From contig CASGDQ010000043.1 of NCBI GenBank assembly GCA_949300325.1, positions 2,221-66,220 on the forward strand: DNA of 64,000 nt, written 5' to 3'. Position 1 is the first letter of the stretch; every line of letters starts with the position of its first letter. A program made the translations under genes and the position numbers. The notes beneath the pieces are model-generated. The model was not told the origin of the DNA. It was given only the letters and a program-made list of their open reading frames with translations, and made no database searches. Of this stretch, positions 5,054-26,061 are shown piece after piece. Origin of the DNA: an uncultured Spirochaetales bacterium (GTDB taxonomy: Bacteria > Spirochaetota > Spirochaetia > Sphaerochaetales > Sphaerochaetaceae).

Positions 5054-8000
5054 ATGTCTGATATTATGAGACCGGTACCGTTTTCCGAACTCTTGAACAG
5101 GATGGTGGGGGAGTTGAGGAACCACCACAGCGCTTTCGGGATTTCGGAGGAGTTGTTTTATAGAGGGGATGGCAAAAAGAAGATCAAGGTTTTCTCTCAG
5201 GAATGCGAGATGCCGCTTGGTCCGGCTGCGGGGCCTCATACCCAGCTTGCACAGAACATCATCACCAGCTTTCTTGTCGGTGCGAGATTCATAGAGCTTA
5301 AAACCGTGCAGGTGATGGATACCCTTGATATAGAAAAGCCTTGCATCGATGCAAGAGATGAAGGCTACAATGTGGAATGGTCTACTGAATATACGCTCCC
5401 TAAAGCGTTTGACGAGTATCTTAAAGCCTGGATAATTGTCCATATTTTGGATATGGCGATGAAAGAAAAATGGGAAAAGCCGTCTTTCATCTTCAACATG
5501 TCCGTCGGCTATAACCTTGAAGGCATCAAGACAGAGAAGATGCAAAGATACATCTCTTGCATGATGGATGCCAAAAAAGATGAGAAATTCGCTTCTTATA
5601 TCGCGGAGGCCAAGGCCGCTTTGGAAGAGGATCTTTTTGAAGGGACGATATTCGAAGGCTGCGAGAAAAAGGTTATCTCCAATTTGGATAAGATAAGCGC
5701 TTTCATCAGCCCCTCGGTCACCATATCGACAATGCATGGCTGTCCTCCTCATGAGATAGAAGCCATCTGCACCTACATGCTTGCTGAAAAGAAGCTGGAT
5801 ACATTCGTAAAGCTCAATCCTACGCTGCTGGGCTACGATGAGGTGAGAAAGATATTGGATGACCTCGGTTACGGTTATGTCGGACTGAGAAGAGAATCAT
5901 TCGAGCACGATCTGCAGTATCCGGATGCTGTCGCCATGCTTAAGCGTCTTATAGCCCTTGCCAAAGAGAATAAGAAGGGCTTTGGCGTAAAGCTTACAAA
6001 TACGCTCGGCTCTGTAAACGACCAAGGTGTTCTTCCGGGAGAAGAGATGTATATGTCAGGCCGTGCTCTGCTGCCGATATCGACTACGGTTGCCTACCGG
6101 CTTTCCAAGGAATTTGACGGCTCTCTTCCTGTTTCCTATTCCGGAGGCGCCAATGCGCTTACAGTCAAGGATATCTTTGATACCGGAATCAGGCCGATCA
6201 CGCTTGCAACCGATATGCTTAAGCCGGGCGGATATTCGAGGATGACGCAGATGGTCAAGATCCTTGACAATGATGATAGCTGGGCCATGAAGGCTATAGA
6301 CTGCAAGAAGCTTCAAGAGCTGACGGAAAAGGCAAGAGATAAGAAAAGCTATATTGCTAAGGATTTCCGCGGCACGAACAATACAAAGATCAAGAATCCG
6401 CTTCCGCTTTTTGATTGCTATGTCGCTCCTTGCGTGGAGGCTTGCCCCATACATCAGATGATTCCTGATTATGTTGCACTTGCCGGCGAAGGCAGGCTGG
6501 AGGAGGCTCTGGCTGTCATTTATCTCGATAATGCCTTGCCGAATATGACCGGTTGGATATGCGACCATCAGTGTCAGAACCATTGTACAAGAATGGATTA
6601 TGAGGGACCTGTGAAAATCAGGGAGGTGAAACGGCAGTTGGCCGAAAAAGCCTTCGCTTCTTATAAAAAAGAGATATGGGAGAAGCCAGAGGCTGAGGAT
6701 GTCAAGGCCGCTGTACTCGGTGCGGGACCTGCTGGACTTGCTGCTGCATTCTTCCTTGCACGTGCCGGTTTTGCTGTTGATGTTTTTGAACGTGAAGCAT
6801 GTGCTGGCGGAGTGGTCAGGAATGTGATACCCGATTTCAGGATCCCTTCCGAGGTTGTTGAAAAAGATGTGGCTTTCATAGCCGACAACGGGGTTTCTTT
6901 CCATTTCTCGGCGCAGAAAACCATATCCGGTCTCAAGGAGGAAGGCTTCAACTTCATCTTTGTCGCTATCGGAGCTGAAAAATCAGCAGATGCCAGGATT
7001 GCGGGAAATGGTGTGCGCGAAAGTGCCGTCAGCTATCTCAGGAGAACCAAAAAAGGGGAGAAGACCAATCTTGGAAAGCATGTGGTTGTCCTTGGCGGAG
7101 GAAACACTGCTATGGACGCATGCCGTCAGGCTGTAAGGGCAGAAGGGGTCGAGGATGTGCGCATCGTATATAGGAGGAGCATTTCCGAGATGCCTGCCGA
7201 TCATGAGGAGTATCAGGCAGCTTTATCTGATGGAGTAGGCTTTGATTTCTTGGTGAACCCGTATGAATTCAAAGACGGAACGCTTTATCTTGATAAGATG
7301 AAACTCGGAGAGAAGGATGCCTCAGGAAGAAGAAAGCCTGTGGCGACCGGTGAGAGATTCTCAATCCCCTGCACCTATCTGATAACCGCGATCGGAGAGA
7401 AGGCCGATGATGAGAATCTGAGAGCGCTCGGCTATCTGACCGAAGAGGATGGGGTTTATCTTGTAGGCGATGTATCCACAGGGCCCAGCACTGTCGTCAG
7501 ATGCATTGCGGAAGCCCGAACGGCTGTGGAAGATGCGATCGACAAGGTCTATTCCTCCATGCTCGAAGAGGAGGACGACTGCTGTTCTTCGGAAGATGGA
7601 CATGAAGAAGATCATGAATGCACTTGCGGCCATAACCATGGTGAAGATCATGAATGCACCTGCGGCCATGATCACGATGATGCAGGCGAAGATGAGGATG
7701 AGGAAAGCAGGGAGGAGCTTACCAAGGCGGAGAATGCTTATTTCAAGAATCTTAGAAAGAAGAAGAGCTCAATTACATTCTCTGCTGAGAGGGATTCATC
7801 TTCATTCTTCAAGACCGAAGCTTCAAGGTGCCTTGAATGTTCATATTACTGCAACAAATGTGTGGAGGTTTGTCCGAATAGGGCGAACGTGGCTGTTGAC
7901 ATGAGGGCTTGGGAAGCATTCGAGGATCCGTTCCAGATCGTGCATATCGATGCGTATTGCAACGAGTGCGGCAATTGCGAGACCTTCTGCCCACACGATG

Positions 8001-8245
8001 GCGGTCCTTATAAGAAGAAATTTACGGTTTTCAGCCGTGAGGATGATTTTGAATCCAGCACTAACGATGGCTTCTTTGTCGATGATGACAGGGCTCTTGT
8101 GGTAAGGATTGCAGGAAAGGTTTATAAGGGAGGCTTCGACAAGGATGGTCTTGTCGTGGTCGATGGAGTCGCGCCCGAGGTATGCATGCTGATGGATGAA
8201 CTCTTCTTCAGCTATGATTATCTTCTCGGGGATGTGGAGGAATGA
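5054..8245 (+). CDS. ygfK: YgfK-family multidomain oxidoreductase ('putative selenate reductase subunit YgfK'): DHODH-like TIM barrel + Fe-S + GltD-like FAD/NAD(P) domain + C-terminal ferredoxin
   Basis: ATG at 5054 lies 7 nt after AAGGAG. Cys clusters CYVAPCVEACP and CxxCxxCxxxCP, GAGPAGLAAA and GGGNTAMD dinucleotide folds, about 1060 aa. The stop overlaps the ssnA start, as in the E. coli ygfK-ssnA pair. Confidence 0.85.
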   Translation: MSDIMRPVPFSELLNRMVGELRNHHSAFGISEELFYRGDGKKKIKVFSQECEMPLGPAAGPHTQLAQNIITSFLVGARFIELKTVQVMDTLDIEKPCIDARDEGYNVEWSTEYTLPKAFDEYLKAWIIVHILDMAMKEKWEKPSFIFNMSVGYNLEGIKTEKMQRYISCMMDAKKDEKFASYIAEAKAALEEDLFEGTIFEGCEKKVISNLDKISAFISPSVTISTMHGCPPHEIEAICTYMLAEKKLDTFVKLNPTLLGYDEVRKILDDLGYGYVGLRRESFEHDLQYPDAVAMLKRLIALAKENKKGFGVKLTNTLGSVNDQGVLPGEEMYMSGRALLPISTTVAYRLSKEFDGSLPVSYSGGANALTVKDIFDTGIRPITLATDMLKPGGYSRMTQMVKILDNDDSWAMKAIDCKKLQELTEKARDKKSYIAKDFRGTNNTKIKNPLPLFDCYVAPCVEACPIHQMIPDYVALAGEGRLEEALAVIYLDNALPNMTGWICDHQCQNHCTRMDYEGPVKIREVKRQLAEKAFASYKKEIWEKPEAEDVKAAVLGAGPAGLAAAFFLARAGFAVDVFEREACAGGVVRNVIPDFRIPSEVVEKDVAFIADNGVSFHFSAQKTISGLKEEGFNFIFVAIGAEKSADARIAGNGVRESAVSYLRRTKKGEKTNLGKHVVVLGGGNTAMDACRQAVRAEGVEDVRIVYRRSISEMPADHEEYQAALSDGVGFDFLVNPYEFKDGTLYLDKMKLGEKDASGRRKPVATGERFSIPCTYLITAIGEKADDENLRALGYLTEEDGVYLVGDVSTGPSTVVRCIAEARTAVEDAIDKVYSSMLEEEDDCCSSEDGHEEDHECTCGHNHGEDHECTCGHDHDDAGEDEDEESREELTKAENAYFKNLRKKKSSITFSAERDSSSFFKTEASRCLECSYYCNKCVEVCPNRANVAVDMRAWEAFEDPFQIVHIDAYCNECGNCETFCPHDGGPYKKKFTVFSREDDFESSTNDGFFVDDDRALVVRIAGKVYKGGFDKDGLVVVDGVAPEVCMLMDELFFSYDYLLGDVEE
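7607..7669 (+). repeat. Tandem in-frame coding repeat inside ygfK (EDHECTCGH twice, 36-nt period)
   Basis: gaagatcatgaatgcacTtgcggccat (7607-7633) and gaagatcatgaatgcacCtgcggccat (7643-7669) match at 26/27 nt. Confidence 0.9.
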
Positions 8246-9582
8246 TGGATATACTTATCAGGAATGTCCGTATCATGCAGACGGAACCTCCGTTTGAGGT
8301 CAGCGAGGGCATGGATGTCCTAATAAAGGGCACCGAGATAGCGGAAGTTGGAAAGAATCTGCCTATAGCCGGGTGCAAGGTGATCGAAGGGGAAGGCAAA
8401 ACGCTCATCCCTGGAAACGTATGCTCCCATCACCACTATTATTCCGGCTTGTCACGCGGAATGCTCATCTCCGCGGGACCTCAGACCGATTTTATTCAGG
8501 TCCTGAAGGAATGGTGGTGGCGCCTTGATCGTGGATTGGATGAGGAAGCCTGTTACTATTCCTCCCTCATCTGCAGCATGGATGCGATATTGAGCGGAAC
8601 GACAACCGCAATTGATCATCACGCATCACCTTCTTACATCGAAGGAAGCTTGGATACGATAGCCCGCGGCATGGAGGAAGTCGGAATCCGCGGCGCTACC
8701 TGCTACGAGGTTACCGATCGCAATGAAGGGGAAAAGGAGCTTAGACGGGGTGTAGATGAGAACATTGCCTTTGCCAAAAAAGTGGACTCCAGACTGAAAA
8801 AAGGGGAGGATGTGCTGGTAGAGGCCATGATCGGCGGCCATGCCCCGTTCACCATCCCGGAAAGCGGCATGGAAATGATGAAGGATGCTGTAGATGAAAC
8901 CGGAAGGGGTATGCATTTACATATAGCCGAAGATAAGTATGATGTGGTCCATTCACACCATATTTACAATGAGGATATAATCAGGCGGTTGGACCGCCAT
9001 GGCCTTTTAAGCGGCAAGACGCTTCTTGTCCATGGCATACATATCAGCAGAGAAGAGGTGGATATCCTCAATGAGAGGGGCTGCTTCTTCGCGCATAACC
9101 CGCGAAGCAACATGAACAACCATGTTGGATACAACAGGCATTTGGCCGATATAAAGAAGCTTGTGCTCGGAACCGACGGCTGCGGCGGCAACATGTTCGA
9201 GGAGATAAAGATCGGATTCTTCAAGCATAAGGATGATGGTGGTCCGTGGTGGCCGTCCGATTTCCTTACTGCCCTCAATCGCGGCAACAGCCTGGTCGAG
9301 AGTGTTTTCTCAGGCCGTGGGAAGTGGGGCCGTGTGGAAAAAGGCTGCAAGGCAGACCTCGTGCTTCTTGATTATTATTCTCCGACTCCGCTGGTGAAGG
9401 AAAACGCAGCAACACATTTTGTGTGGGGCATGAGTTCCAATGCGGTCAGGACGGTGATAGTCAATGGAAAAATTGTTCTGGAGGACAGGGTGTTCCCGCA
9501 TCTTGATGCGGATAAGATTTATGCAGAGGCCTCCCGTGTCGCAAAAAGCGTCTGGGAGAAGGTGGATAAAATAAAATCATAG
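8242..9582 (+). CDS. ssnA: SsnA-family aminohydrolase (amidohydrolase superfamily)
   Basis: 446 aa. Metal-binding SHHHYYSGLSRG motif and HIAE / HG..I / GTDG signatures of cytosine/guanine-deaminase-like amidohydrolases. ATGA overlap with ygfK. Confidence 0.8.
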   Translation: MMDILIRNVRIMQTEPPFEVSEGMDVLIKGTEIAEVGKNLPIAGCKVIEGEGKTLIPGNVCSHHHYYSGLSRGMLISAGPQTDFIQVLKEWWWRLDRGLDEEACYYSSLICSMDAILSGTTTAIDHHASPSYIEGSLDTIARGMEEVGIRGATCYEVTDRNEGEKELRRGVDENIAFAKKVDSRLKKGEDVLVEAMIGGHAPFTIPESGMEMMKDAVDETGRGMHLHIAEDKYDVVHSHHIYNEDIIRRLDRHGLLSGKTLLVHGIHISREEVDILNERGCFFAHNPRSNMNNHVGYNRHLADIKKLVLGTDGCGGNMFEEIKIGFFKHKDDGGPWWPSDFLTALNRGNSLVESVFSGRGKWGRVEKGCKADLVLLDYYSPTPLVKENAATHFVWGMSSNAVRTVIVNGKIVLEDRVFPHLDADKIYAEASRVAKSVWEKVDKIKS

Positions 9583-9596
9583 GAGAAGATAGGAGT

Positions 9597-10820
9597 ATGA
9601 GTATCACCAAACAGATTCAGCAGTTGGCGGAGAAGTATCGCGATTACACAGCGGAAAACCTTTCCAAGCTGGTAAAGACGAAGAGCTATTCCTCTAAGGA
9701 AGAGGATGTATGCCGTCTTCTTGTTGAACTTTGCAAGGAAGCGGGATTCGACGACGTCAGGATCGACGGACTTGGATCGGTTATCGGAAGAATTGGAAAC
9801 GGCCCGAAGAAAATCGCATTCGACGCGCATATCGACACCGTCGAGGTCGGAAACATGAAGAACTGGAAGTTTGACCCGTTCTCTGGCGAAATCAAGGATG
9901 GTCTGGTTCTTGGACGCGGCGCGAGCGATCAGAAGGGCGGAGCTGCCTCGATGATTACCGCAGGAAGGATTTTGAAAGAACTCGGATATGGCGGGGAATA
10001 TACGATTTATTTCACATTCACCGTTATGGAAGAGGATTGTGATGGAATGTGCTGGAAATATCTGATCGAGGAAGAGGGATTCAAGCCTGATCTGATCGTT
10101 TCCACAGAGCCTACCAGCTGTAGAATCTATCGTGGCCATAGAGGAAGGATGGAGATCAGGATCATCCTGCGTGGCATATCCTGCCATGGATCTGCTCCAG
10201 AGCGCGGAGTCAGTGCCGCTTACAAGGCCGCACGTGCTGCTCTTGCAATAGAGAAACTCAACCAGGATCTTCAGCCTGATGATGATAATTTCCTTGGCAA
10301 GGGAACCATTACCGTAAGCCAGATGGATGTCAAAGGACCGAGCCAGTGCGCGGTTGCGGATTATGCAATGATCTATTGCGACAGGCGTCTGACATGGGGA
10401 GAGGATGCCGATCTTGCAATTGCTCAGGTCAGAAAATATGTTTCTGAAGCCACAGGTGATGATCCTGATTCGATCATCGTCGAGATGCCTGATTACGAAA
10501 AGGTTGGCTGGACGAATCGTCCTTATTCCCAGGAGCTTTATTTCCCGACATGGAAGATTCCACAGGATCATCCGCTTGTACAGGCTGCGATTGCCGATTA
10601 CAAGGCCCTTTATGCTAAGGATCCAGTGGTCGACAAGTGGACTTTCAGCACAAACTGCGTAGCAACCACTGGAAGACATAAGATTCCTGCTATCGGATTC
10701 GGTCCTGGAGATGAGGCCCAGGCCCATGCTCCGAATGAGATCAACAGGGTTGAGGATCTTGTGATCTGCTCCGGATTCTATGCCTTGCTGCCGTATTCGC
10801 TTGAAAAGAAGATTGATTGA
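9597..10820 (+). CDS. ygeY: YgeY-family M20 peptidase/deacylase ('putative selenium metabolism hydrolase')
   Basis: 407 aa. AHIDTVEVG, GRGASDQKGG and the MEED motif of M20 metallohydrolases. Gene order ssnA-ygeY. Confidence 0.8.
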   Translation: MSITKQIQQLAEKYRDYTAENLSKLVKTKSYSSKEEDVCRLLVELCKEAGFDDVRIDGLGSVIGRIGNGPKKIAFDAHIDTVEVGNMKNWKFDPFSGEIKDGLVLGRGASDQKGGAASMITAGRILKELGYGGEYTIYFTFTVMEEDCDGMCWKYLIEEEGFKPDLIVSTEPTSCRIYRGHRGRMEIRIILRGISCHGSAPERGVSAAYKAARAALAIEKLNQDLQPDDDNFLGKGTITVSQMDVKGPSQCAVADYAMIYCDRRLTWGEDADLAIAQVRKYVSEATGDDPDSIIVEMPDYEKVGWTNRPYSQELYFPTWKIPQDHPLVQAAIADYKALYAKDPVVDKWTFSTNCVATTGRHKIPAIGFGPGDEAQAHAPNEINRVEDLVICSGFYALLPYSLEKKID

Positions 10821-10848
10821 GAACTACGGAAAAGGTCGTCTCATTTCG

Positions 10849-10876
10849 CCCGGCATTTTTTAAGTGCCGGGTTTTT
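10849..10876 (+). terminator. Rho-independent terminator after ygeY
   Basis: cccggca (10849-10855) pairs with tgccggg (10865-10871), followed by a TTTTT run. Confidence 0.75.
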
Positions 10877-10916: not shown

Positions 10917-12143
10917 GTGAATGAACCTGAATGTCGTACAAAAAATGCCAAGGCTGTTGCTTTTCCGCCGGCCATGCGCTTTTTGCTTTTGCCGTTTTAT
11001 GGCAATTATTTGAAATTTAAGTACCATCTGGTGCTCGAGAACCGAGATGAGGTCCTTCCTTTTCAAGGCCCCGCGGTGGTCTTTGCAAACCACGCCCATA
11101 CTCTGGATCCTTTCTTTATTTCCGCCGTCTATCCCTATCATATAAGATGGGTTGCCGGATCCTATCTTTTCAAGATGAGGATGGTCGGCTACCTTTTAAG
11201 AAAATGGGTGGGCTGCATTCCGAAAACCCAGGGCCGCAATGATCTGCAGACCATACGCAATATTTCTGAGGCGCTGAAAAAAGGCGATATAGTCGGAGTT
11301 TTTCCGGAAGGGACAAGAACATGGGATGGGGATATGATGGATATAGCCTCCGGGACTGCCAAGCTCGTGAGATTGTTCAAGGTTCCGGTGGTGTTCATAC
11401 ATATCCGTGGAGGTTTTTCCTCCCGTCCGCGCTGGGCGGCAAGGGAGAGGAAGGGGCCTGTTACTGTCGAGGTTTTCAAGACGTTCACTCCAGAAGAGAT
11501 AAGCTCCATGGACAGGGCTGAGCTGGAAAAAGCCGTCTCGGAGTGCTTGAGCTTCTCGAATGACAGATGGCAGGAGAAAGCTCATGTTCCTTATCGAGGA
11601 AAAAAACGGGCAGAGGGAGTGGAAAGCCTTTTGTATCAGTGTCCGTCATGCAAGGCTTACTCCACCATCAAAGCAGAAGGGGATGTCATATCATGCACGG
11701 CATGTGGCGCTTCTGCGGTATTGGACGATTACGATAGGCTTGTAGACGGCAGGGGAATCGGATTTTCCAAGCTTTCCGAATGGCATGACTTTGAGAAGAA
11801 AAAGCTGGCAAACCTTTTATCTTCTCATAAAAGCGGATTGCTGTTTCCTACAGATCGCGGCATCCTGTTCCAAAAAGGCTCAGCCGGCAGTTTGATCGAC
11901 CTCTCGAAGGCCTTTAGTCTGGAATGCGATGCAAACGGCCTTCATTTTTCCTTTCCAAAGCCTTTATCAGGTTACGGGGATAAAGTCGATTTTGATTTTT
12001 TATCCATTTCCTCCATGGTCATCAATGCAAAACAGACCATTGAATTCTTTTATCAAGGCAATATGTTCCGCTTCCGCCTTAAAAGAGGTTCCAGCCCTTT
12101 GAAGATATGGGAGCTTTATAATCTTGTGCAGGCAAGGGGGTGA
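10917..12143 (+). CDS. PlsC-type acyltransferase with C-terminal zinc-ribbon-containing domain
   Basis: HX4D motif (NHAHTLD) and FPEGTR motif; CPSC...CTAC ribbon. Start is ambiguous between the GTG at 10917 and the ATG at 10974. Confidence 0.6.
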   Translation: MNEPECRTKNAKAVAFPPAMRFLLLPFYGNYLKFKYHLVLENRDEVLPFQGPAVVFANHAHTLDPFFISAVYPYHIRWVAGSYLFKMRMVGYLLRKWVGCIPKTQGRNDLQTIRNISEALKKGDIVGVFPEGTRTWDGDMMDIASGTAKLVRLFKVPVVFIHIRGGFSSRPRWAARERKGPVTVEVFKTFTPEEISSMDRAELEKAVSECLSFSNDRWQEKAHVPYRGKKRAEGVESLLYQCPSCKAYSTIKAEGDVISCTACGASAVLDDYDRLVDGRGIGFSKLSEWHDFEKKKLANLLSSHKSGLLFPTDRGILFQKGSAGSLIDLSKAFSLECDANGLHFSFPKPLSGYGDKVDFDFLSISSMVINAKQTIEFFYQGNMFRFRLKRGSSPLKIWELYNLVQARG

Positions 12144-12147
12144 TGTT

Positions 12148-15905: not shown

Positions 15906-16374
15906 AATCACTTTCAGACTGAACGGAAACCAAGCGGTTTTCGTAGGCAATCCTCTTGCACGCCTTGTCGATGTGCTCAGAGAGGATTATGGCCTGGTTG
16001 GAGTCAAGGAAGGCTGCGGAGAAGGGGAGTGCGGTGCCTGCTCCGTCCTTAAGGATGGCAAGCTTGTCACCAGCTGCATCATCCCCATGGCCAGTGTCGA
16101 CGGCTGTGAAATATACACTATCGAAGGAATAAGGGATACAGACAAGGGACGATGCATAATCGATGCTTTTGCAGATGGAGGAGCTGTGCAGTGCGGCTTC
16201 TGCATTCCAGGCATGGTGCTTGCCTCCTATGCCCTTCTTTCGGAGAATCCTGATCCAAGCGAATCTGATATAAGACTCGCGCTCAGCGGAAATATCTGCC
16301 GTTGTACGGGCTATGATTTGATAATAGAAAGCGTTAAGCTCGCGGCAAAGAGAGGAGGTGGACTATGGCAGTAG
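15895..16374 (+). CDS. Xanthine dehydrogenase-family [2Fe-2S] small subunit
   Basis: 159 aa. Both canonical cysteine sets are present: CGEGECGACSV...SC and QCGFCIPG...CRCTGY. Confidence 0.9.
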   Translation: MDAKITFRLNGNQAVFVGNPLARLVDVLREDYGLVGVKEGCGEGECGACSVLKDGKLVTSCIIPMASVDGCEIYTIEGIRDTDKGRCIIDAFADGGAVQCGFCIPGMVLASYALLSENPDPSESDIRLALSGNICRCTGYDLIIESVKLAAKRGGGLWQ

Positions 16375-17931: not shown

Positions 17932-20808
17932 ATGGAAATCAGGACTGTAATAAACAATAAGAACGTCATCCTGAAAGCAGAAGCCTGGGAGGATCTAAGG
18001 ACTGTGCTTTACAGGAGCGGCTTCACCTCGTTGCGCGACAGCGACGACAGGGAGGGGTTTTGCGGAAGCGATACGATTGTCTTCAACGGAAGGCTCATGT
18101 ATTCGAACCTGATTTTAGCCTATAAGGCTGAGGGTGCAAAAATAAGGACGCCTGAATCCCTTTCCATCGGCAGAAAACCGAATGACGTGCAGAGGGCGAT
18201 GATTGCATCCGGTGTCGTTCAGAGCGCTTACAATGCCCCGGAGGCAGCTCTTATACTCACATATCTGCTTGAAAAGAACCCTCATCCCTCAAAAGAGGAG
18301 ATAAAGGACGCGCTTTCCGGCATTTTCATACGCGATGCAGGCTATGAGCATTATTATCTTGCTGTCCGTCTTGTGGAGGAGGAAAGGCAATACGGCTGCT
18401 ACAAGACTCCCGTATCCCCATCTTTCAGGGACAATCTCAAGTTCGTAGGAAAACCGACTGGAAAAATCGACGGAGAAGCCCTCGTAATGGGTGAGAAGGT
18501 GTTTGTCGAAGATAAAGTGCTTCCCGGCGCGTATGTGCTTCTCGTTCTCAGAAGCCCCTTTGCACATGCATACATAAAGAGCATCGACATATCGAAAGCA
18601 GAGAAGCTTGACGGGGTTGAGACCGTGATAACCTGCGAAAACTGCCCGGATGTATATTACATGCAGGCTGGACAGGGCAATCCCGAACCCAGCCCTCATG
18701 ACAGAAGGCTTTTCAATCGCAAGGTGAGGCATGTCGGCGATCGGGTTGCGGCAGTTGTTGCAAAGGATTACGAAACAGCAGAAAAGGCTCTCAGCCTGAT
18801 TAATGTGGAATACGAGCCCCTTTTGCCTGTATTCACGGTCGAAGAGGCAATGGCTGAAGGCGCTCCTCTTGTTCACAACGGTTTTGTCGAATACCGCTCC
18901 GGGGCTCCTGCCGACCTTGATGAATACAATAAGAAGTATGAGAAGAGGGATGGCAAGGTCATCTACCAATTTCCTCTCCATGGGGATATCCGGCATAACA
19001 TTGCAGCTGGGGCGCATGGCGGGATCGGCGATATAGAAAAAGGATTTGAGCAAGCGGATGCGATAGTCGATGAGACTTATCAGACCAGCCAGGTTCAGTG
19101 CACGCCCCTAGAGCCTCATGTATGCTATTCACGCATCGAAGGCGGACGTCTTGTCATCCACGCATCGACTCAGGTGCCGTATCATGTTAGGCGCATCGTC
19201 TCATGGGTCTGCGAGATACCCGAGCATAAGGTGCATGTCATAAAAGAAAGGGTAGGAGGCGGATATGGAAGCAAGCAGGATGTGCTTGTGGAGGATCTAT
19301 GCGGCTATGCTACATGGATTACGGGAAAACCCATATACTATCGTAATTCCAGAGCCGAGGAGTTTTATGCCAATTCCACACGCCATCCGATGAGGGTCCG
19401 CGTCAAGATGGGTGCTAAGAAGGATGGCACGATAACTGCAATCTACATGGATGTAAGGGCCAATACAGGTCCGTATGGCAACCACTGTCTGACAGTGCCG
19501 ATGAATGCTTCGAGCAAAACGCTGCCGATTTTTGCAGTGGATAACATGTATTACGACCTTACGACGTATTATACGAACATCCCTCCGACAGGCGCATATC
19601 AGGGATATGGGGCTCCAAAGGGTTATTTCGGCATAGTTTCCTGCATGGGACAGCTTGCCATGAAGCTTGGAATTGATCCGCTTGAAATGGCTAAAAAGAA
19701 CATAGTCGATGAAGGCTATATGCTTGAGATCCTGCGCGGGCTTGGAGAAGGAAGGGAAGGTGCGGTGGTCCCTGTTGGTTCCTGCGGCCTTCGTGAAGCC
19801 CTGGACAAGGGTGGAAAGATGATCGATTGGGGAAAGAAGGAAGTATCTGATGATCCCGATTGGAAAATCGGCAAGGGCTTTGCGATGATACAGCAGGGCT
19901 CCGGGCTTCCTGGACTGGATCATTCGAATGCCCAGTGCAAGCTTGTCTCCGATGGCTCGTTCATCGTCTTAAGCGGAGGTGCAGACCTTGGCACCGGCCT
20001 TGATACGATTTCAGCAAAGTGTTGCGCCGAGATCTTGAAGTGCAGCCTTTCGGATGTCTCCGTAGTAAGCGGAGATACCGACAGCTGTCTGTTCGATACA
20101 GGCGCTTATGCTTCAAGCGGAACATATTTCTCTGGCAATGCTTCCTTGAATGCAGCAAAGGATCTTCTTAAAAAGATCATCCATGAAGCTTCATTGGAGC
20201 TTGGTGAGGCGGAGGAGGATCTGTTTGCCGCAGAACCGGGAAAGATAGTTTCCAAGAAGACGAAAAAAGAGCTTACATATGCCCAGATAGCGCATGCTGT
20301 ACTAAGCGGCGACGGTCGTGGAGCGCTCATCGGCACCGGTACGTTTGTCACCCCGAATTTCGCAGTTCCGTATGGAGCGCATTTTGCGCAGGTGGCGGTC
20401 AATGTCAAGACGGGGCAGGTGAAGGTGATGAAATTCTACGCCCTTCAGGATGCGGGCACTCCGATCAATCCTGAGCTTGCGCTCTGCCAGATGTATGGCG
20501 CTGTCCAGAAGAGCATCGGACATACTCTCTATGAGAACATGATCCTTGATAAGGATGGAAGGTGCATAAATGCCAATATGACAGATTATGGCGCGCCGAT
20601 GATAGGCGAGGCACCTGATGATTTCAAGGCTGTCCTGATAGATGTCAATGATCAGTACGGTCCATTCGGTGCAAAGTCGATAAGCGAGATTGCTACAAAC
20701 GGTGCCGCTCCTGCGATTGCCATGGCGATTGCCGATGCAACAGGCGTGTGGGTCAGATCCTGGCCGATAACCCCTGAAAAGATTCTCAAAGGGCTTGGAC
20801 GGTTCTGA
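17932..20808 (+). CDS. xdhD: XdhD-like fused (degenerate Fe-S domain + molybdopterin-binding) hydroxylase subunit
   Basis: 958 aa. The N-terminal ~160 aa align to the 2Fe-2S subunit fold but lack the cysteines. The rest is an aldehyde oxidase/xanthine dehydrogenase Mo-binding domain (GGGYGSKQ, YQGYGAPKG, GPFGAKSISE). Confidence 0.8.
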   Translation: MEIRTVINNKNVILKAEAWEDLRTVLYRSGFTSLRDSDDREGFCGSDTIVFNGRLMYSNLILAYKAEGAKIRTPESLSIGRKPNDVQRAMIASGVVQSAYNAPEAALILTYLLEKNPHPSKEEIKDALSGIFIRDAGYEHYYLAVRLVEEERQYGCYKTPVSPSFRDNLKFVGKPTGKIDGEALVMGEKVFVEDKVLPGAYVLLVLRSPFAHAYIKSIDISKAEKLDGVETVITCENCPDVYYMQAGQGNPEPSPHDRRLFNRKVRHVGDRVAAVVAKDYETAEKALSLINVEYEPLLPVFTVEEAMAEGAPLVHNGFVEYRSGAPADLDEYNKKYEKRDGKVIYQFPLHGDIRHNIAAGAHGGIGDIEKGFEQADAIVDETYQTSQVQCTPLEPHVCYSRIEGGRLVIHASTQVPYHVRRIVSWVCEIPEHKVHVIKERVGGGYGSKQDVLVEDLCGYATWITGKPIYYRNSRAEEFYANSTRHPMRVRVKMGAKKDGTITAIYMDVRANTGPYGNHCLTVPMNASSKTLPIFAVDNMYYDLTTYYTNIPPTGAYQGYGAPKGYFGIVSCMGQLAMKLGIDPLEMAKKNIVDEGYMLEILRGLGEGREGAVVPVGSCGLREALDKGGKMIDWGKKEVSDDPDWKIGKGFAMIQQGSGLPGLDHSNAQCKLVSDGSFIVLSGGADLGTGLDTISAKCCAEILKCSLSDVSVVSGDTDSCLFDTGAYASSGTYFSGNASLNAAKDLLKKIIHEASLELGEAEEDLFAAEPGKIVSKKTKKELTYAQIAHAVLSGDGRGALIGTGTFVTPNFAVPYGAHFAQVAVNVKTGQVKVMKFYALQDAGTPINPELALCQMYGAVQKSIGHTLYENMILDKDGRCINANMTDYGAPMIGEAPDDFKAVLIDVNDQYGPFGAKSISEIATNGAAPAIAMAIADATGVWVRSWPITPEKILKGLGRF

Positions 20809-20816
20809 AAAATATG

Positions 20817-20847
20817 CGGCTGGTTCTTGGAACCGGCCGTTTTTTTT
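20817..20847. terminator. Bidirectional rho-independent terminator between convergent xdhD and tetR
   Basis: cggctggttc (20817-20826) pairs with gaaccggccg (20830-20839), including one G-T pair, followed by 8 T. An A-rich run on the left flank (20808-20812) would serve the opposite strand. Confidence 0.8.
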
Positions 20848-21392
20848 CAGGATAAGAGAGTTTTGCTTTGCTCCAAAAGAAGCGTTATCTTGTCAATGTC
20901 CACGCTCAGTGGATTTGTGATATGCCTTTTCAAGGCTTGGATCAAAAAAAGCGAGTAGAAATCCAAGAGAAGAGGATCTGCATCCTTATCCCCGTTTGCC
21001 AGCCTGGAAAAGAAGATGTAGCGCAGCGCATCCTCAAGCTTTCTTTCAAACCGGATTGATGGACGTTTTGCTAAAAGCATCGAAAGGCTTTTTGACTCGT
21101 CATCTGCAAAATTTATGAGCCCTGCGAGGAATTTCTTCAAATCCTTTTCTTCGTCCAATTTCAGCAAGCGGTATATCAAATCGTCCTCGATTTCCTCATA
21201 AAGGTCCCTTACATTGTCATAGTAGCTATAGAATACGCTTCTCTCCACGCCGGCCCTATCGCTGACCATCCTTGCGCTTATCATATCCTCGTCTTCTGTT
21301 TCGAGAAGTTCTAAAAGGCTGTCCTGCAGCGCGAACTGTGCGCTGGTAAACGTTAGTTTGGATATTTTTGCAATGTATGAGTATGGATTCAT
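20847..21392 (-). CDS. TetR/AcrR-family transcriptional regulator
   Basis: 181 aa with an N-terminal HTH region (ISARMVSDRAGVERSVFYSYYDNVRDLYEEI). Last gene of the csd-xdhC-tetR string. Confidence 0.65.
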   Translation of the reverse strand: MNPYSYIAKISKLTFTSAQFALQDSLLELLETEDEDMISARMVSDRAGVERSVFYSYYDNVRDLYEEIEDDLIYRLLKLDEEKDLKKFLAGLINFADDESKSLSMLLAKRPSIRFERKLEDALRYIFFSRLANGDKDADPLLLDFYSLFLIQALKRHITNPLSVDIDKITLLLEQSKTLLS

Positions 21393-21401: not shown

Positions 21402-22367
21402 CTACCTTATTGCAGAAGATGGGGAAAGATATTTGAACATCACTGATGCCTTTCCTCCGCAGGCCATGCCCAGCTCGCCTTTGCTTGTTAAATCGAAATC
21501 GCATATCATCGTTTTCCCCTTTGAGGAAAGCAGGCATAAAGCCTTTTTCTTTGCTTCTTCTTCCAGCGCTCCTCCTCCGATGCTTGCTATGCATCCTGAG
21601 GATGCTACGAGCATTTCCGCACCTTTTCTTGCAGGCCCTGAGCCGGTTTTTCTTATTATGCGGCATAGCACCGCTTCTTCTTTCAAATCGGATAAAGCCT
21701 TCAATATTGCCAGATCGGCTTCTATGGAATCCTTTTCTCCGCGGTATGTGCAGATGATCTCTGCCATTATTGCAACAGCGATTTCCTCCGCTGTGGCGGC
21801 TTTGATGTCGAGCCCTATCGGGGAATGAACTTTTTCAAGCTCTTTTCTTGTAAAGCCTTCGTTTTCAAGCTCGTTCCATGTTGCTTCTATCTTTTTTTTC
21901 GATCCTATCATGCCGATGTATGAAGAGCCTTTTTTGAGGGCCTTCCTTATGCAGATCCCATCTGCTTTGTGTCCATGGGTGAATATTATGAAATACGGAT
22001 TGTCGAAATGGTGTTTTTCAAGATCAATATCAGAAAACGGAAGAACATGCCTTTGGGCATTCATAAAACGCTCCTTGCTGCAGTATTCTTTTCTGTCGTC
22101 GAACACCGCAGTCTTGAGGCCGACAATCTCTGCTATTTTGTATAGCGCAGAAGCTATATGCCCGGCTCCGAACATGACAAGCGTAGGCGGCAGGCATATC
22201 GGATCTTCCAGGTTGTCCTCCCTTTTTTCGAATGCACAGGTTGAATCGATCAGCTTTCCATCAAGAAAAAGCGCTTCCTCTCCCGCTATATCAGGTGCCA
22301 CAGCCAAGCTTCTTACGAGCTGCGCCGTACACAGCGTATCCTTCAGTCTTCTATAATAGTCATCCAT
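21402..22367 (-). CDS. xdhC: XdhC/CoxI-family molybdenum-cofactor insertion chaperone (atypical domain order)
   Basis: ATG at 22367 (MDDYYRRL) follows AAGGAGGAG and overlaps the csd stop. Rossmann motif VMFGAGHIA is in the first half. The XdhC_CoxI-like segment (RKTGSGPARKGAEMLV...IGGGALE...GMACGG) is at the C-terminus. Confidence 0.7.
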   Translation of the reverse strand: MDDYYRRLKDTLCTAQLVRSLAVAPDIAGEEALFLDGKLIDSTCAFEKREDNLEDPICLPPTLVMFGAGHIASALYKIAEIVGLKTAVFDDRKEYCSKERFMNAQRHVLPFSDIDLEKHHFDNPYFIIFTHGHKADGICIRKALKKGSSYIGMIGSKKKIEATWNELENEGFTRKELEKVHSPIGLDIKAATAEEIAVAIMAEIICTYRGEKDSIEADLAILKALSDLKEEAVLCRIIRKTGSGPARKGAEMLVASSGCIASIGGGALEEEAKKKALCLLSSKGKTMICDFDLTSKGELGMACGGKASVMFKYLSPSSAIR

Positions 22368-23499
22368 TAATCTCCTCCTTGAGCGCACATATGGTTTTTT
22401 CGATCTCATCTTTTTTCGTGAATGGACCGGGTGAAAGCCTCAGCGTTCCCTGCGGGTATGTGCCAAGACTCATGTGCTCTATCGGCGCGCAGTGCAGGCC
22501 GACCCTGCATTCTATTCCATGATTCCTATAAAGCCTGTTTGCAAGCAATGCCAGATCCATCTTGTCCGTTGAGATCGATACCGCTCCTGTCCTCTTTTCT
22601 CCGCTTTTGGGTCCGATTATCCTGATATTGTCAATGCTTTCCAGCCCTGATACCAGAGAAAAGATGTTCTGCTCGTACTTTTTAAAAAGGTTGCTGGAAT
22701 TTGAATTGATGTAATCAAGTGCGGCTTTCAGGCCGAAAAGCCCTGGAAGATTTCTTGTCCCGGCTTCAAATTTATCAGGAAATATGTCCGGCATTTCGAT
22801 GCTGTCGGAAAAAGAGCCCGTTCCGCCTGCGATCAAAGGGGATGTCTTTTCCGCAATCTCTCTTCTTAAGACCATTCCGCCTGTTCCTTGCGGACCCAGC
22901 AATCCCTTATGCCCGGTGAAGAAAACTCCTGCAAGCTCCATTTCCTTCATGCTTATCCTTACAAATGGCGCAGCTTGGGCAGTATCAAGAAAGAGGGGAA
23001 GAAAGGCTTTCCTGCACAGCTCTGAAAGGACAGCAATATTCTCAATCCTGCCTGAAACATTGCTTGAGGCGTTTGCTATGACGGCTTTGACATTTCTTGA
23101 GACCAGATCCGTAAAGCGGGAGAAATCGGAGAGGCCGTTTTCATCCACCGGTATCCTTACGCTTTTGACGCCATGGCATGTAAGCGCTCTTTCGACGGCG
23201 TTATGCTCGTGCGAGGTCGTTATGACGATATCGTCCTTCTTGAAATATCCATGCACGAATATGTTCACGGCTTCAGTAACATTCTGCGTAAAAAATACCG
23301 TGTCTGCATCATCATATCCGAACAGCGATGCAATATCCTCCCTGAGAGCGCAAATCGCATCCTCCTCCTGGTATGCATTGTCGCTGTGCGTCCTTGATAG
23401 ATTGCAGCCGAGCTCATTCATGAAATATAATACGGCATTTGCCACTCCAGGGGCCTTTGGCCAGCTTGTGGCCGAATTATCCATGTAGATCCTGTCCAT
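22360..23499 (-). CDS. Class V aminotransferase / cysteine desulfurase-family protein (candidate selenocysteine lyase-type Se/S donor)
   Basis: 379 aa with PLP lysine in FTGHKGLLGP and active-site cysteine in GLHCAP. This is the stand-alone desulfurase type reported next to selenium-dependent hydroxylase genes. Confidence 0.75.
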   Translation of the reverse strand: MDRIYMDNSATSWPKAPGVANAVLYFMNELGCNLSRTHSDNAYQEEDAICALREDIASLFGYDDADTVFFTQNVTEAVNIFVHGYFKKDDIVITTSHEHNAVERALTCHGVKSVRIPVDENGLSDFSRFTDLVSRNVKAVIANASSNVSGRIENIAVLSELCRKAFLPLFLDTAQAAPFVRISMKEMELAGVFFTGHKGLLGPQGTGGMVLRREIAEKTSPLIAGGTGSFSDSIEMPDIFPDKFEAGTRNLPGLFGLKAALDYINSNSSNLFKKYEQNIFSLVSGLESIDNIRIIGPKSGEKRTGAVSISTDKMDLALLANRLYRNHGIECRVGLHCAPIEHMSLGTYPQGTLRLSPGPFTKKDEIEKTICALKEEING

Positions 23500-23572
23500 G
23501 TGTTAATTGTATATCTTTTCCATTGCGTATGCAAAAAGATAATGTTACCATCTTATCAATCAGGAGGTTCTG

Positions 23573-24640
23573 ATGATCGGTCAGAGAAAAAAATTGCTTG
23601 TTTCAGGAGCTCTGTTGGGGCTCTCAAGCATAATCCTTGTAGTATTGGGCAATCCCGGCAACATGGGACTTTGCATCGCTTGTTTTTTGAGGGATATCGT
23701 AGGTGCCCTGCATATTCATCCGGCACAGAATGTTTCATACATGCGTCCGGAAATACTTGGCATAGTGCTTGCGGCTTTTATTGTTTCTGTTGTGAAAAAG
23801 GAATTCCGTCCCCGCGGAGGATCTAATCCCGTGCTGAGATTCTTGCTTGGCGCTTTCATGATGATCGGTGCTCTTGTATTCCTCGGCTGTCCTGTAAGGA
23901 TGGTTCTGCGTCTTGCCGCAGGTGATATGAATGCGCTTATTGCTCTCATAGGTTTTGCCCTCGGGGTCGCTGCTGGATCGGCATTTTTGAACCAGGGATT
24001 TTCTCTCGGTCGGAGCAGGAGACTGCATGTGGCCTTCGGCCTTGCTTCTCCGGTGCTGTTTCTGATCTTCTTGTTCATATTGTTCTTTTTCCCAGCTCTT
24101 CTCGTTTTCGGAGATGCCGCTCCTGCAGCAAACCACGCCCCGATCGTCGCATCCCTGTTTTTCGGCGCGGTGGTAGGAATCGCCAGCCAGAGATCGAGGA
24201 TGTGCATGGCCGGAGGAATCAGGGATCTGATCCTTTTAAGGGATCCTGGACTCATAATGGCTCCTATCGCCATGTTTGTTGTGGCTCTTGTAGGAAATCT
24301 CGTGATCGGCAAGTTTAATTTGGGATTTGCTTCGCAGCCCATAGCCCATACCGAAGGCGTGTGGAACTTTTTAGCTATGTTCCTCGTCGGTCTTTGCGCG
24401 GTAATGCTTGGCGGCTGCCCCCTCAGACAGCTCATCCTTTCTTCAGAAGGGGATTTCGATGCATTCATAACGGTCATAGGTCTTATGGCGGGAGCCGCTG
24501 TTTCCCATAATTTCAGCGCGGCAAGCAGCGCGAATGGAACGACCGCAAATGGAAGGATGCTTGTAATAGTCGGACTTGTTTTCGCTTTTGCTGTAGCAGT
24601 GATCGTTACTATGAGAAATAGGAGGAAAGAAAATGGTTGA
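23573..24640 (+). CDS. yedE: YedE-family putative selenium/sulfur-compound transporter
   Basis: 355-aa polytopic membrane protein with duplicated halves carrying GLCIACFLRD and SRMCMAGGIRD motifs. AGGAGG lies 5 nt upstream. Confidence 0.8.
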   Translation: MIGQRKKLLVSGALLGLSSIILVVLGNPGNMGLCIACFLRDIVGALHIHPAQNVSYMRPEILGIVLAAFIVSVVKKEFRPRGGSNPVLRFLLGAFMMIGALVFLGCPVRMVLRLAAGDMNALIALIGFALGVAAGSAFLNQGFSLGRSRRLHVAFGLASPVLFLIFLFILFFFPALLVFGDAAPAANHAPIVASLFFGAVVGIASQRSRMCMAGGIRDLILLRDPGLIMAPIAMFVVALVGNLVIGKFNLGFASQPIAHTEGVWNFLAMFLVGLCAVMLGGCPLRQLILSSEGDFDAFITVIGLMAGAAVSHNFSAASSANGTTANGRMLVIVGLVFAFAVAVIVTMRNRRKENG

Positions 24641-24839
24641 TGCACGTGGACTCAGCTGCCCTGAGCCAGTAATCATGGTAAAAAAGTTTTTGAAATCCAA
24701 TAATAATCCCAAAAGTGTGCATGTGCGCGTGGATAACGTTGCCAGCAAGGAGAATGTTACAAGGTATCTTGAAGCCATGGGGTACAAGGTTGAGATAATC
24801 AAGGAAGATGATGGATGGTCGCTGAAAGCAGGATTGTGA
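24633..24839 (+). CDS. yedF: TusA/SirA-like sulfur(selenium)transferase, short YedF-like
   Basis: 68 aa with the CPxP active-site motif (GLSCPEPV). Overlaps the yedE stop. Confidence 0.75.
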   Translation: MVDARGLSCPEPVIMVKKFLKSNNNPKSVHVRVDNVASKENVTRYLEAMGYKVEIIKEDDGWSLKAGL

Positions 24840-25063
24840 CCCTGACATTTTCTTCCCATTACGAGGCGGTCAAGCTTAAGCGCGCTCTAGCGAAAAAAGG
24901 CATTGGCTGCCGTCTCGTGCCTGTGCCCAGGAGCCTTTCATCTTCCTGCGGCACGGCAATGGAAATAAACGAGAAGGATGCTTTTGCGGCCAAGGAGCTT
25001 GAAATAGCTGAAGGGGCGTTCATTGAGGAGGAAGGAAAATGGTCAAGCTTACGAGGATGGTGA
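24815..25063 (+). CDS. DUF3343-type putative Se/S carrier protein
   Basis: About 80 aa with the typical F.S...A..AE/K..L...GI...L.P.P...S.SCG pattern (VPVPRSLSSSCGTAMEI). An alternative GTG start at 24836 overlaps the yedF stop. Confidence 0.65.
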   Translation: MVAESRIVTLTFSSHYEAVKLKRALAKKGIGCRLVPVPRSLSSSCGTAMEINEKDAFAAKELEIAEGAFIEEEGKWSSLRGW

Positions 25064-26061
25064 AGACAAGCGGATGCGCGGCAAAACTGGCTGCGAAAGA
25101 TCTGCATGAGGTTCTTTCCTCGCTGCCTAAAAAGGCTGATGAGAAACTTCTGGTGGGTTTCGAAGGCTCTGATGATGCGCTGGTCTACGATTTGGGAAAC
25201 GGCGATGTCATGATATCAACGGTGGATTTCTTTCCACCTGTGGCCGACGATCCTTATACCTTCGGTCAGATTGCGGCGGCAAACGCGCTTTCCGATGTGT
25301 ATGCTATGGGCGGGGACCCGAAGGTCTGTATGAACCTTGTGTGCTTCCCGTCATGTCAGGATCTTGATATTTTGAAGCAGATACTCACCGGCGGATGCGA
25401 CAAGGTGCACGAAGCAGGAGCTGTTGTCGCAGGAGGGCATACCATTGCAGATTCGGTGATCAAGTATGGCTTATCTGTAACTGGTTTTGGTAAAAAGAAT
25501 TCATTTTGGACGAATGCCGGAGCAAAGGAAGGGGATGTCATAGTCCTTACGAAGAAGATCGGGGTAGGGATAATCAATACTGCGGCAAAAGCGGACGAAG
25601 TTCCGGAAGCTCTTCTCTCTGAGGCCCTTTCTTCTATGAAAACCCTCAATAAGAGAGCAAAGGAAGCTGCAGAAGGCCTTGATGTGAGAGCTGCAACCGA
25701 CATAACTGGATTTTCTCTTCTCGGCCACCTCTATGAGATGGCATCTTCAAGCGGAGTTTCGATAACCATAGATCACAGCAGTGTTCCGCTTTTTGACGGT
25801 GTTGTCGATCTTGCCCGGTTCGGTTTCCTGAGCGAGGGTGTTTACAACAACAGGGAATACATTGAAGAAAGTGTTCATTTCGAGCCATCTTTGAAAAGGG
25901 AGATATGTGATGTACTCTTCGATCCTCAGACATCTGGAGGACTTGCCCTTGCCATGAGCGAACCAGATGCTGCAGAGTATCTGAAAAGGATGTCTGATAC
26001 ACCTGCGGCTATGATCGCACGAGTTGGTAAGAAAAGAGATTATCCTGTGTATGTGATATGA
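25039..26061 (+). CDS. selD: Selenide, water dikinase (selenophosphate synthetase), Cys form
   Basis: 340 aa. N-terminal TSGCAAKL (Cys-x-x-Lys catalytic loop, Cys rather than Sec), PurM-like fold motifs (DDALV, VDFF.P, DVYAMGG, GGHT). GGAGGAAGG lies upstream. Confidence 0.9.
   Translation: MVKLTRMVKTSGCAAKLAAKDLHEVLSSLPKKADEKLLVGFEGSDDALVYDLGNGDVMISTVDFFPPVADDPYTFGQIAAANALSDVYAMGGDPKVCMNLVCFPSCQDLDILKQILTGGCDKVHEAGAVVAGGHTIADSVIKYGLSVTGFGKKNSFWTNAGAKEGDVIVLTKKIGVGIINTAAKADEVPEALLSEALSSMKTLNKRAKEAAEGLDVRAATDITGFSLLGHLYEMASSSGVSITIDHSSVPLFDGVVDLARFGFLSEGVYNNREYIEESVHFEPSLKREICDVLFDPQTSGGLALAMSEPDAAEYLKRMSDTPAAMIARVGKKRDYPVYVI

Follow-up and report, generated by a model that had tools for sequence, protein, structure and literature searches.

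Urate is degraded anaerobically by gut bacteria through the reductive urate, or 2,8-dioxopurine, pathway, which was established in two studies of 2025 (PMC12507026; bioRxiv 10.1101/2025.04.24.650524) and discussed in a commentary (PMC12990295). XdhD-YgfM, or the clostridial XdhAC, first converts urate to 2,8-dioxopurine. YgfK then carries out a reduction, SsnA opens the ring, and HyuA opens the hydantoin. Finally, YgeW and YgeY strip the two ureido groups, YgeX converts 2,3-diaminopropionate to pyruvate, and YqeA provides ATP (PMC12507026; bioRxiv 10.1101/2025.04.24.650524). The selenium side of this metabolism goes back to Haft and Self, whose families of the orphan-selD trait include TIGR01977 and the SirA-like TIGR03527 (PMC2276186, Table 1); the association with YedE and DUF3343 was added by Lin et al. 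(PMC5322559). Here, we describe a 64-kb stretch of spirochete DNA (the window, taken at its whole length) in which genes of both kinds very probably make up one purine/urate catabolic and selenium-cofactor supercluster.

Bacterial breakdown of urate in the gut bears on the urate levels of the host and on gout. Both the pathway and its dependence on selenium were worked out as recently as 2023-2025, in E. coli and clostridia alone. The system in the window is largely described already. What is new is its occurrence in a gut spirochete, a conserved candidate operator, and a candidate module for the replacement of YgeX; the known picture of the pathway is unchanged by these findings. A preliminary description of this DNA had tied the gene set to the orphan-SelD and selenium-dependent molybdenum hydroxylase analysis of Haft and Self and to urate degradation in the gut. 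Both ties hold, the same families being listed in Table 1 of the former (PMC2276186). NCBIfam and Pfam profile searches recovered every gene that it named, in place or within a few bases. Its statement that the substrates of YgfK, SsnA, YgeY, and YgeW were unresolved is outdated, since the pathway was reconstituted in 2025 (PMC12507026; bioRxiv 10.1101/2025.04.24.650524). The deletions of selD, yqeB, and yqeC and the tests of selenium dependence that it proposed were already carried out in other organisms, namely C. sporogenes and C. difficile (bioRxiv 10.1101/2025.04.24.650524; PMC11448449).

Catabolic enzymes and two molybdenum hydroxylases

Open reading frames (ORFs) were listed across the window, and 60 of them were scanned against NCBIfam and 20 against Pfam. 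Scores are given below as score/curated cut-off in bits; the TusA-like and DUF3343 proteins were scored by Pfam and the other families by NCBIfam. Related loci were collected in two ways. XdhD as the query against one genome per GTDB species gave 80 loci, and a metagenome scan with a threonine-synthase-like enzyme dependent on pyridoxal phosphate (PLP), named PALP406, gave 58. Nine NCBIfam models (YgfK, SsnA, YgeY, XdhD, YedE, SelD, YgeW, YqeC, and YqeB) scored above their curated cut-offs, as did the Pfam models of TusA and DUF3343, whereas YgfM, YedF, XdhC, the SclA-like protein, and the three-subunit hydroxylase stayed below. The gene identities of the preliminary description are borne out; for the second group, the families named are still the best matches in spite of their scores, and the genes are syntenic. 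Identity to the characterized E. coli proteins is 36-66% over the full length, apart from YgfM (26%).

The 2,8-dioxopurine reductase YgfK, an Fe-S flavoenzyme whose function is taken from PMC12507026, is encoded at 5054-8245 (+) and shares 49% identity with its E. coli counterpart from end to end (TIGR03315, 1288/835). Its gene overlaps by 4 nt that of SsnA, the ring-opening amidohydrolase (8242-9582, +; TIGR03314, 539/455; 51% to E. coli SsnA). YgeY, an M20 ureido-group hydrolase, follows at 9597-10820 (+) (NF009555, 505/321; 49% to E. coli YgeY). YgeW is encoded farther to the right at 32151-33353 (+) (TIGR03316, 773/500; 66% to E. coli YgeW). It is a knotted carbamoyltransferase, for which phosphorolysis of a ureido group to carbamoyl phosphate is predicted.

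Two molybdenum hydroxylases are encoded between ygeY and ygeW. The first is a three-subunit purine hydroxylase of the xanthine dehydrogenase (XDH) type, with a molybdopterin (L) subunit at 13764-15905 (+), a 2Fe-2S (S) subunit at 15895-16374 (+), and an FAD (M) subunit at 16365-17228 (+). The nearest solved structure to L is bovine XDH (225 bits). S matches XdhC/PucE-type iron-sulfur models with E values of 1e-45 to 1e-48, under their cut-offs, and M matches XdhB-type models at 138/310. When L is aligned to chain C of bovine xanthine oxidase, all seven of Q767, E802, R880, F914, F1009, T1010, and E1261 are conserved. We take these to be the purine-site and catalytic residues of bovine XDH, among which Glu802 and Arg880 together presumably mark purine-oxidizing enzymes as opposed to aldehyde oxidases. 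Because the purine-site residues are intact, we infer that L-S-M is an oxidative xanthine/hypoxanthine dehydrogenase that would supply urate to the pathway. The preliminary description had called this enzyme canonical, which fits the purine site and does not fit the scores, since L falls below every named XDH cut-off. This L-S-M form is common in gut anaerobes and is without a named model. In 58 of the 80 XdhD loci, ygfM-xdhD comes directly after its genes. Eight related loci (L118-L121, L125, L126, L129, and L136) have a gene for a 462-amino-acid guanine-deaminase-like amidohydrolase at the L-S-M position between ygeY and ygfM, which suggests lineage-specific entry points for purines.

The second hydroxylase is XdhD-YgfM. 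YgfM, the FAD partner subunit (17251-17928, +), aligns from residue 2 to E. coli YgfM with 26% identity, and its best family is TIGR03312 (82/241). Its start codon is the GTG at 17251, behind the ribosome-binding site AAGGAGG, and in every one of the 80 loci the gene immediately precedes xdhD. XdhD, the Mo/Fe-S subunit of the predicted reductase from urate to 2,8-dioxopurine (17932-20808, +; TIGR03313, 1213/1102), is 52% identical to E. coli XdhD. It retains Glu606, which was suggested by Li et al. to orient urate in the E. coli enzyme (PMC12507026). Among solved structures, the alpha subunit of 4-hydroxybenzoyl-CoA reductase is nearest (285 bits), ahead of bovine XDH (157 bits). As the former enzyme is a reductive dehydroxylase, XdhD looks more like an enzyme of that kind.

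From these assignments, the following route can be proposed. L-S-M, with its intact purine site, would oxidize hypoxanthine and xanthine to urate. XdhD-YgfM would then reduce urate to 2,8-dioxopurine, YgfK would reduce the ring, and SsnA would open it, as their orthologues in E. coli and Clostridium have been shown to do. By the same orthology, YgeW would release one ureido group by phosphorolysis as carbamoyl phosphate, and YgeY would hydrolyze the other to leave 2,3-diaminopropionate. The steps of HyuA, YqeA, and YgeX must be either encoded beyond the window or performed by different enzymes.

At the left edge of the window (2-451, +), the C-terminal 149 amino acids of an Amidohydro_3 (D-aminoacylase-type) protein run off the end. 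UacY of C. difficile is a member of this Pfam family, too. No relative of this fragment was found in a collection of 5.8 billion proteins, and it is absent from the related loci.

The selenium and cofactor module

Nearly all of the genes for selenium delivery stand beside the two hydroxylases. YedE, a putative selenium transporter (23573-24640, +; TIGR04112, 449/200), is followed by a TusA/SirA-like small sulfur/selenium carrier (24633-24839, +; PF01206, 66/29), the DUF3343 protein (Se_S_carrier; 24815-25063, +; PF11823, 58/25), and the selenophosphate synthetase SelD (25039-26061, +; TIGR00476, 365/125). These four genes overlap or abut each other, which suggests a single operon. SelD is of the Cys type, with the N-terminus MVKTSGCAAK, as the preliminary description had read it. 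The carrier at 24633-24839 had been named TusA/YedF-like. The TusA part of that name stands; full YedF identity is rejected, as only the N-terminal TusA-like domain is present and TIGR03527 is matched over profile positions 1-60 of 194 at 61/110.

Two genes diverge from the yedE-selD genes across a gap of 73 bp. The nearer one encodes a cysteine-desulfurase-like class V aminotransferase (22360-23499, -), of the type of TIGR01977 and of the selenocysteine lyase SclA. It aligns over its full length to TIGR01977 (347/377) and scores 271/525 with NF040779 (SclA). Haft and Self associated the TIGR01977 family with selD (PMC2276186), and SclA of E. faecalis is specific for selenocysteine (Sec). The other gene encodes an XdhC-family chaperone for insertion of the molybdenum cofactor (Moco) (21402-22409, -; NF045664, 242/350) and is found downstream of xdhD in 35 loci. 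Its two domains, PF13478 (136 bits) and PF02625 (46 bits), are in permuted order, with the XdhC_C Rossmann domain (residues 77-218) ahead of XdhC_CoxI (residues 243-300). At its start, the xdhC ORF shares 50 nt with the 3' end of the sclA-like gene, and the true start is therefore probably the Met at residue 15.

The remaining cofactor genes are adjacent and overlapping at some distance. YqeC, a P-loop accessory protein for the selenium cofactor with the Walker A motif GAGGKTT, is encoded at 41515-42222 (+) (TIGR03172, 110/73; PF19842, 105 bits; 36% to E. coli). YqeB, a maturation protein for selenium-dependent Moco that combines an XdhC-like N-terminus with the YqeB domain, is encoded at 42200-43699 (+) (TIGR03309, 360/220; 40% to E. 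coli YqeB).

Together, these proteins could form a route for selenium, in which YedE would import it, the TusA-like and DUF3343 proteins would serve as carriers, and the SclA-like lyase would mobilize it. SelD would then form selenophosphate, and YqeB and YqeC, with the XdhC-like chaperone, may load selenium and Moco onto both hydroxylases. L-S-M and XdhD-YgfM both lie 4-12 kb from selD. With YedE, TusA, DUF3343, the Sec-lyase-type enzyme, SelD, and XdhC so close to the two hydroxylases, the region would be a compact template for reconstituting selenium insertion.

The gene set is conserved well beyond this genome. The closest XdhD loci, with 92% to 73% identity, are from uncultured gut Spirochaetales, Candidatus Ornithospirochaeta, and Sphaerochaetaceae metagenome-assembled genomes (MAGs), and the host is an uncultured gut spirochete of the Sphaerochaetaceae or Candidatus Ornithospirochaeta-like type. 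The order ygfK-ssnA-(ygeY)-L-S-M-ygfM-xdhD, then xdhC-sclA on the opposite strand, then yedE-tusA-DUF3343-selD-ygeW, is seen again in dozens of MAGs, and also in some bins labeled as other taxa. Among the loci that hold both genes, ygeW begins less than 500 nt after selD in 13 of 18. Here, a 6-kb block separates the two (about 26025-32066); it encodes a LacI-type regulator, a TctB-TctC-TctA tripartite tricarboxylate transporter, and a sulfatase, and its GC content falls to 0.40. In the closest relative (L003), ygeW directly follows selD, and collinearity with the window resumes at 32067. The recurring order and the collinearity around the 6-kb insertion indicate that the gene set is a real, selected unit in which selD is physically tied to the hydroxylases. 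Other relatives have other insertions at the selD-ygeW junction, such as AmmeMemoRadiSam-like genes or a MATE-like transporter. As these insertions differ among genomes, no conserved regulator lies between selD and ygeW.

Several points weigh against the assignment of the region to purine and urate catabolism with a selenium cofactor, and the first is the genes that are missing. tblastn of E. coli K-12 region proteins against the window gave no match for hyuA, yqeA, mocA, xanQ, ghxQ, uacT, or ygeV, and for ygeX gave only partial matches of 23-24% to two other PALP proteins. By NCBIfam, no DpaL model matched the window ORFs at E <= 1e-5, and the scan of 60 ORFs turned up no HyuA, YqeA, or YgfJ/MocA (TIGR03310). 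In 138 related loci, hyuA, ygeX, and yqeA are absent up to 10 kb from the query gene, which was xdhD or PALP406, save for one 33% hyuA-like match in L089, and mocA and purine permeases were likewise not found. The window encodes five of the eight catabolic enzymes and lacks HyuA, YgeX, and YqeA. The term "near-complete" in the preliminary description is therefore an overstatement; MocA and a purine permease are missing from the window as well.

The second point is the shortfall of scores. Against the named XDH equivalogs (XdhABC, PucCDE, and Se_dep_XDH, TIGR03311), L scores 336/780 at best (XdhA), 332/784, and 313/830 (Se_dep_XDH), with S and M also short. YgfM and the XdhC-like protein are under their cut-offs, and so is the SclA-like protein with both of its models, by a small margin in the case of TIGR01977. 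Furthermore, a scan for the operator-like motif described below found no site upstream of L-S-M, yedE/sclA, or yqeC in the window. Selenium dependence has so far been shown for the clostridial form only, not for spirochete enzymes or XdhD-YgfM of the E. coli type, and the host is uncultured and known from its genes alone.

A candidate operator and alternative readings

The ygfK-ssnA-ygeY genes form a transcription unit with clear predicted signals. A sigma-70-like promoter, TTGACA-16-TAGAAT (5003-5030, +), matches 11 of 12 consensus positions and is the best in the region. It is followed by the ribosome-binding site AAAGGAG ahead of the ygfK ATG at 5054, and an intrinsic terminator with an 11-bp stem and a T run closes the unit at 10848-10872 (+). 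Another intrinsic terminator, with an 11-bp stem of which 7 pairs are GC, followed by T8, stands after xdhD (20816-20840, +).

Just upstream of the -35 box of ygfK, in the divergent region shared with a PLP enzyme operon, is the operator-like direct repeat TGTTGCACTTTGTTGCAA (TGTTGC-N4-TGTTGC; 18 nt; 4979-4996, +). A second, inverted copy with one mismatch to the first lies at 32069-32086 (-), upstream of ygeW at a distance of 65 nt. The window thus has two sites, with 0.07 expected. A position weight matrix built from related sites scores these at 33.8 bits (4979-4996) and 30.1 bits (32069-32086), with the rest of the window below 9 and a shuffle maximum of 19.7. Across 136 related loci (L003-L139), with up to three mismatches allowed and about 1.5 sites estimated by chance, 61 sites were counted. 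All but one of these (60/61) are in the 300 nt ahead of ygfK, ygeW, L, or the PLP enzyme gene PALP508, and no site precedes operon-internal genes in the same loci. Where the 5' end of the gene is available, the motif is found upstream of ygfK in 28 of 42 loci, always in the same orientation, and upstream of ygeW in 19 of 23, always oriented as in the window. The corresponding counts are 10 of 69 for L and 19 of 41 for PALP508, which shares its region with ygfK. The ygfK operon and ygeW are thus probably controlled by a common regulator that acts through TGTTGC-N4-TGTTGC, a candidate operator. The shared motif also places ygeW with the ygfK block despite the 6-kb insertion, and the point at which collinearity resumes, 32067, is two bases before the ygeW site at 32069. 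If confirmed, the operator would give a handle on the regulator and on further members of the regulon.

Other features of the transcription units were noted. A 181-amino-acid protein encoded just after xdhD (20847-21392, -) has no family match, has an N-terminus that by eye resembles a TetR-type helix-turn-helix, and is shared with no more than the 7 closest loci. A local regulatory role is conceivable; its distribution is too narrow for it to be the factor of the conserved operator. Between the ygeY terminator and L-S-M (10917-13557, +) are genes for an acyltransferase of the PlsC type, which has a zinc ribbon at its C-terminus, and for a membrane protein of 477 amino acids that resembles GltS. 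A pair 30-34% identical to them follows xdhD in an Oscillospiraceae MAG (L048). We rejected this pair as a part of the system, since it lies behind a strong terminator, is missing from most relatives, and resembles a lipid-metabolism insertion.

The operon divergent from ygfK brings in the first alternative, which concerns the missing last steps. Its first gene encodes a DUF3320-containing protein (4320-4910, -; PF11784, 36 bits) found in only 8 related loci. The next two encode fold-II PLP enzymes, which are candidate accessory enzymes of uncertain membership. PALP508 (2764-4227, -) is CysK/CBS-like and has 487 amino acids, as in its homologues. It scores 109/351 with the cysK model, its best match in the PDB is CysK, and its public annotation reads only "pyridoxal-phosphate dependent enzyme". 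Its AlphaFold model, of moderate confidence, has a pLDDT of 70.5 from a shallow alignment; Foldseek places CysK, beta-cyanoalanine synthase, and CBS at the top, a generic fold. The threonine-synthase-like PALP406 (1516-2736, -) matches PF00291 at 234 bits and thrC models at 150/167 and 210/303. At the positions of T88, S155, R160, and N188 in ThrC of T. thermophilus, which we take to be the phosphate-binding site, it has A, A, T, and D, as do 56 of 56 homologues. Scores under the thrC cut-offs and the replacement of these four residues led us to reject PALP406 as a threonine synthase. PALP406 and PALP508 were also excluded as orthologues of DpaL (YgeX) by the profile scans and by partial alignments of only 23-24%, that of PALP508 to E. 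coli YgeX being 23% over 148 amino acids. PF00291 served Li et al. as the proxy of YgeX in neighborhood maps (PMC12507026), and PLP proteins such as these two may therefore have been scored as YgeX.

According to this alternative, which would refine the last steps of the proposed route, the PLP pair acts on albizziin or 2,3-diaminopropionate in place of YgeX, and the hydantoin is opened by an enzyme other than HyuA. The role is chemically plausible, since albizziin and 2,3-diaminopropionate are beta-substituted alanines and PALP508 has the fold of beta-substituted-alanine synthases. The absence of ygeX and hyuA from the window and the related loci (L089 aside) points the same way, as does the family-wide loss in PALP406 of what are presumably the ThrC phosphate-site residues. 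The pair is divergent from ygfK-ssnA in about 27 of about 33 metagenome loci with enough flank, where YgfK identity is 49-74%, and it shares the operator-bearing intergenic region. However, the synteny could be accounted for by common ancestry, and the operator may serve ygfK alone. In 11 other ygfK loci that have this operator, the upstream neighbor is a flavodoxin-like or ndk-like gene and not the pair. Conversely, loci with the pair and without ygfK (L087, L088, L132, L089, and L133) lack the operator, only one of them has a hydantoinase-like gene, and their neighbors are sugar-metabolism genes, transporters, and nucleases. These unrelated neighbors show that the PLP pair is not a universal component. 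Both PLP genes lie 7 kb from xdhD in a Chloroflexi MAG (L046), but trpF, trpC, trpD, gdhA, and cbiK stand in between, and we rejected this locus as independent support for a link to xdhD. ygeX, hyuA, and arcC may also sit elsewhere in the genome. Weighing these points, we regard the replacement of YgeX by the PLP pair as rather unlikely. The same holds for its broader form, a gut Sphaerochaetaceae-type variant in which non-orthologous enzymes, with the PLP pair as the chief candidates, stand in for YgeX and perhaps also for HyuA and YqeA, and in which a TGTTGC-N4-TGTTGC factor controls the whole regulon; we regard this form, too, as rather unlikely. If confirmed, the pair would offer a candidate for the absent last step that lends itself to testing.

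The second alternative replaces selenium with sulfur. XdhC/NifS4 of Rhodobacter is a classical module for Moco sulfuration, and the XdhC-like and NifS-like proteins here could carry out this ordinary reaction. SelD, YedE, TusA, and DUF3343 would then serve Sec or selenouridine systems encoded elsewhere, with their adjacency to the hydroxylases being incidental. The range of the search leaves room for such systems: as the preliminary description had noted, there is no selA, selB, tRNA-Sec (selC), or selU (ybbB) in the 64 kb, a result in which the scan of 60 ORFs against NCBIfam, ARAGORN, Rfam, and a TGA read-through scan without any credible selenoprotein candidate agree, and these genes were sought within the window alone. 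Rfam found no riboswitch, tRNA-Sec, or other RNA element in the window. ARAGORN called an 83-nt tRNA-Pro(tgg) at 26353-26435 (-), inside a LacI-family ORF; this doubtful call is probably a false positive, since Rfam places no tRNA at the site. In other bacteria, Sec genes are likewise found together with YedE, SirA-like, and DUF3343 proteins (PMC5322559). Against the sulfur reading, selD comes directly after the hydroxylase cluster and ahead of ygeW in 18 related loci, and YqeB and YqeC, which are specific markers of the selenium-cofactor trait, are above their cut-offs. Moreover, DOPDH purified from a selD mutant of C. sporogenes was inactive (bioRxiv 10.1101/2025.04.24.650524), and growth of C. 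difficile on xanthine and urate needs selD and yqeB, though not obviously yqeC (PMC11448449). A sulfur-only role is thus very improbable, and a selenium cofactor on the hydroxylases is favored.

A third reading, that YgfK-YgfM-XdhD (YgfN) is a selenate reductase, comes from the name of TIGR03315, "putative selenate reductase subunit YgfK", and the same labels in the table of Haft and Self (PMC2276186), and it has next to no likelihood given that the E. coli enzymes XdhD-YgfM and YgfK, once purified, use urate and 2,8-dioxopurine as substrates (PMC12507026) and that the context of SsnA, YgeY, YgeW, and the XDH-type enzyme is one of purine catabolism.

Comparison with described systems

The L-S-M enzyme may be set beside the three-subunit selenium-dependent XDHs of Eubacterium barkeri and Veillonella. 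Its subunits, at about 78 kDa (L), 31 kDa (M), and 17 kDa (S), fit what we take to be the pattern of those enzymes, a likeness of size and not of compared sequences. It has the purine-site residues but is under the cut-off of Se_dep_XDH.

The selenium module matches the associations reported by Haft and Self (PMC2276186) and Lin et al. (PMC5322559). The EF2563-EF2582 region of E. faecalis (PMC2276186) shares with the window selD together with a SirA/TusA-like protein, the TIGR01977 Sec-lyase type, YqeB, YqeC, a molybdenum hydroxylase, YgfK, SsnA, YgeY, and YgeW. It differs in also having ygeX, hyuA, yqeA, and ygfJ. There, the SirA-like protein has the longer form of TIGR03527; in the window, TusA and DUF3343 are each encoded by a small gene of their own. 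The orphan status of SelD is established in E. faecalis, while the window SelD is a candidate for it at most.

With C. sporogenes and C. difficile (bioRxiv 10.1101/2025.04.24.650524; PMC11448449), the window shares the logic of the pathway, SelD and YqeB/YqeC beside the urate genes, and the combination of an XDH with a urate reductase. Unlike the clostridial clusters with their selenium-dependent DOPDH, it has XdhD-YgfM of the E. coli type, YgfK, and YgeW.

With the ygeW-ygeX-ygeY-hyuA-yqeA / yqeB-yqeC-mocA / ygfK-ssnA-ygfM-xdhD region of E. coli K-12 (PMC12507026), the window shares orthologues of YgfK, SsnA, YgeY, XdhD, YgfM, YgeW, YqeB, and YqeC, as well as the adjacencies of ygfK with ssnA and of ygfM with xdhD. 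E. coli also has ygeX, hyuA, yqeA, mocA, xanQ, ghxQ, uacT, and ygeV. Its control by sigma-54 and YgeV differs from the candidate operator of the window. In turn, the window has an XDH-type enzyme between ygeY and ygfM, whose L subunit is 25% identical to E. coli XdhA, and it holds selD, yedE, tusA, DUF3343, the SclA-like gene, and xdhC within the cluster, whereas selD is located elsewhere in E. coli.

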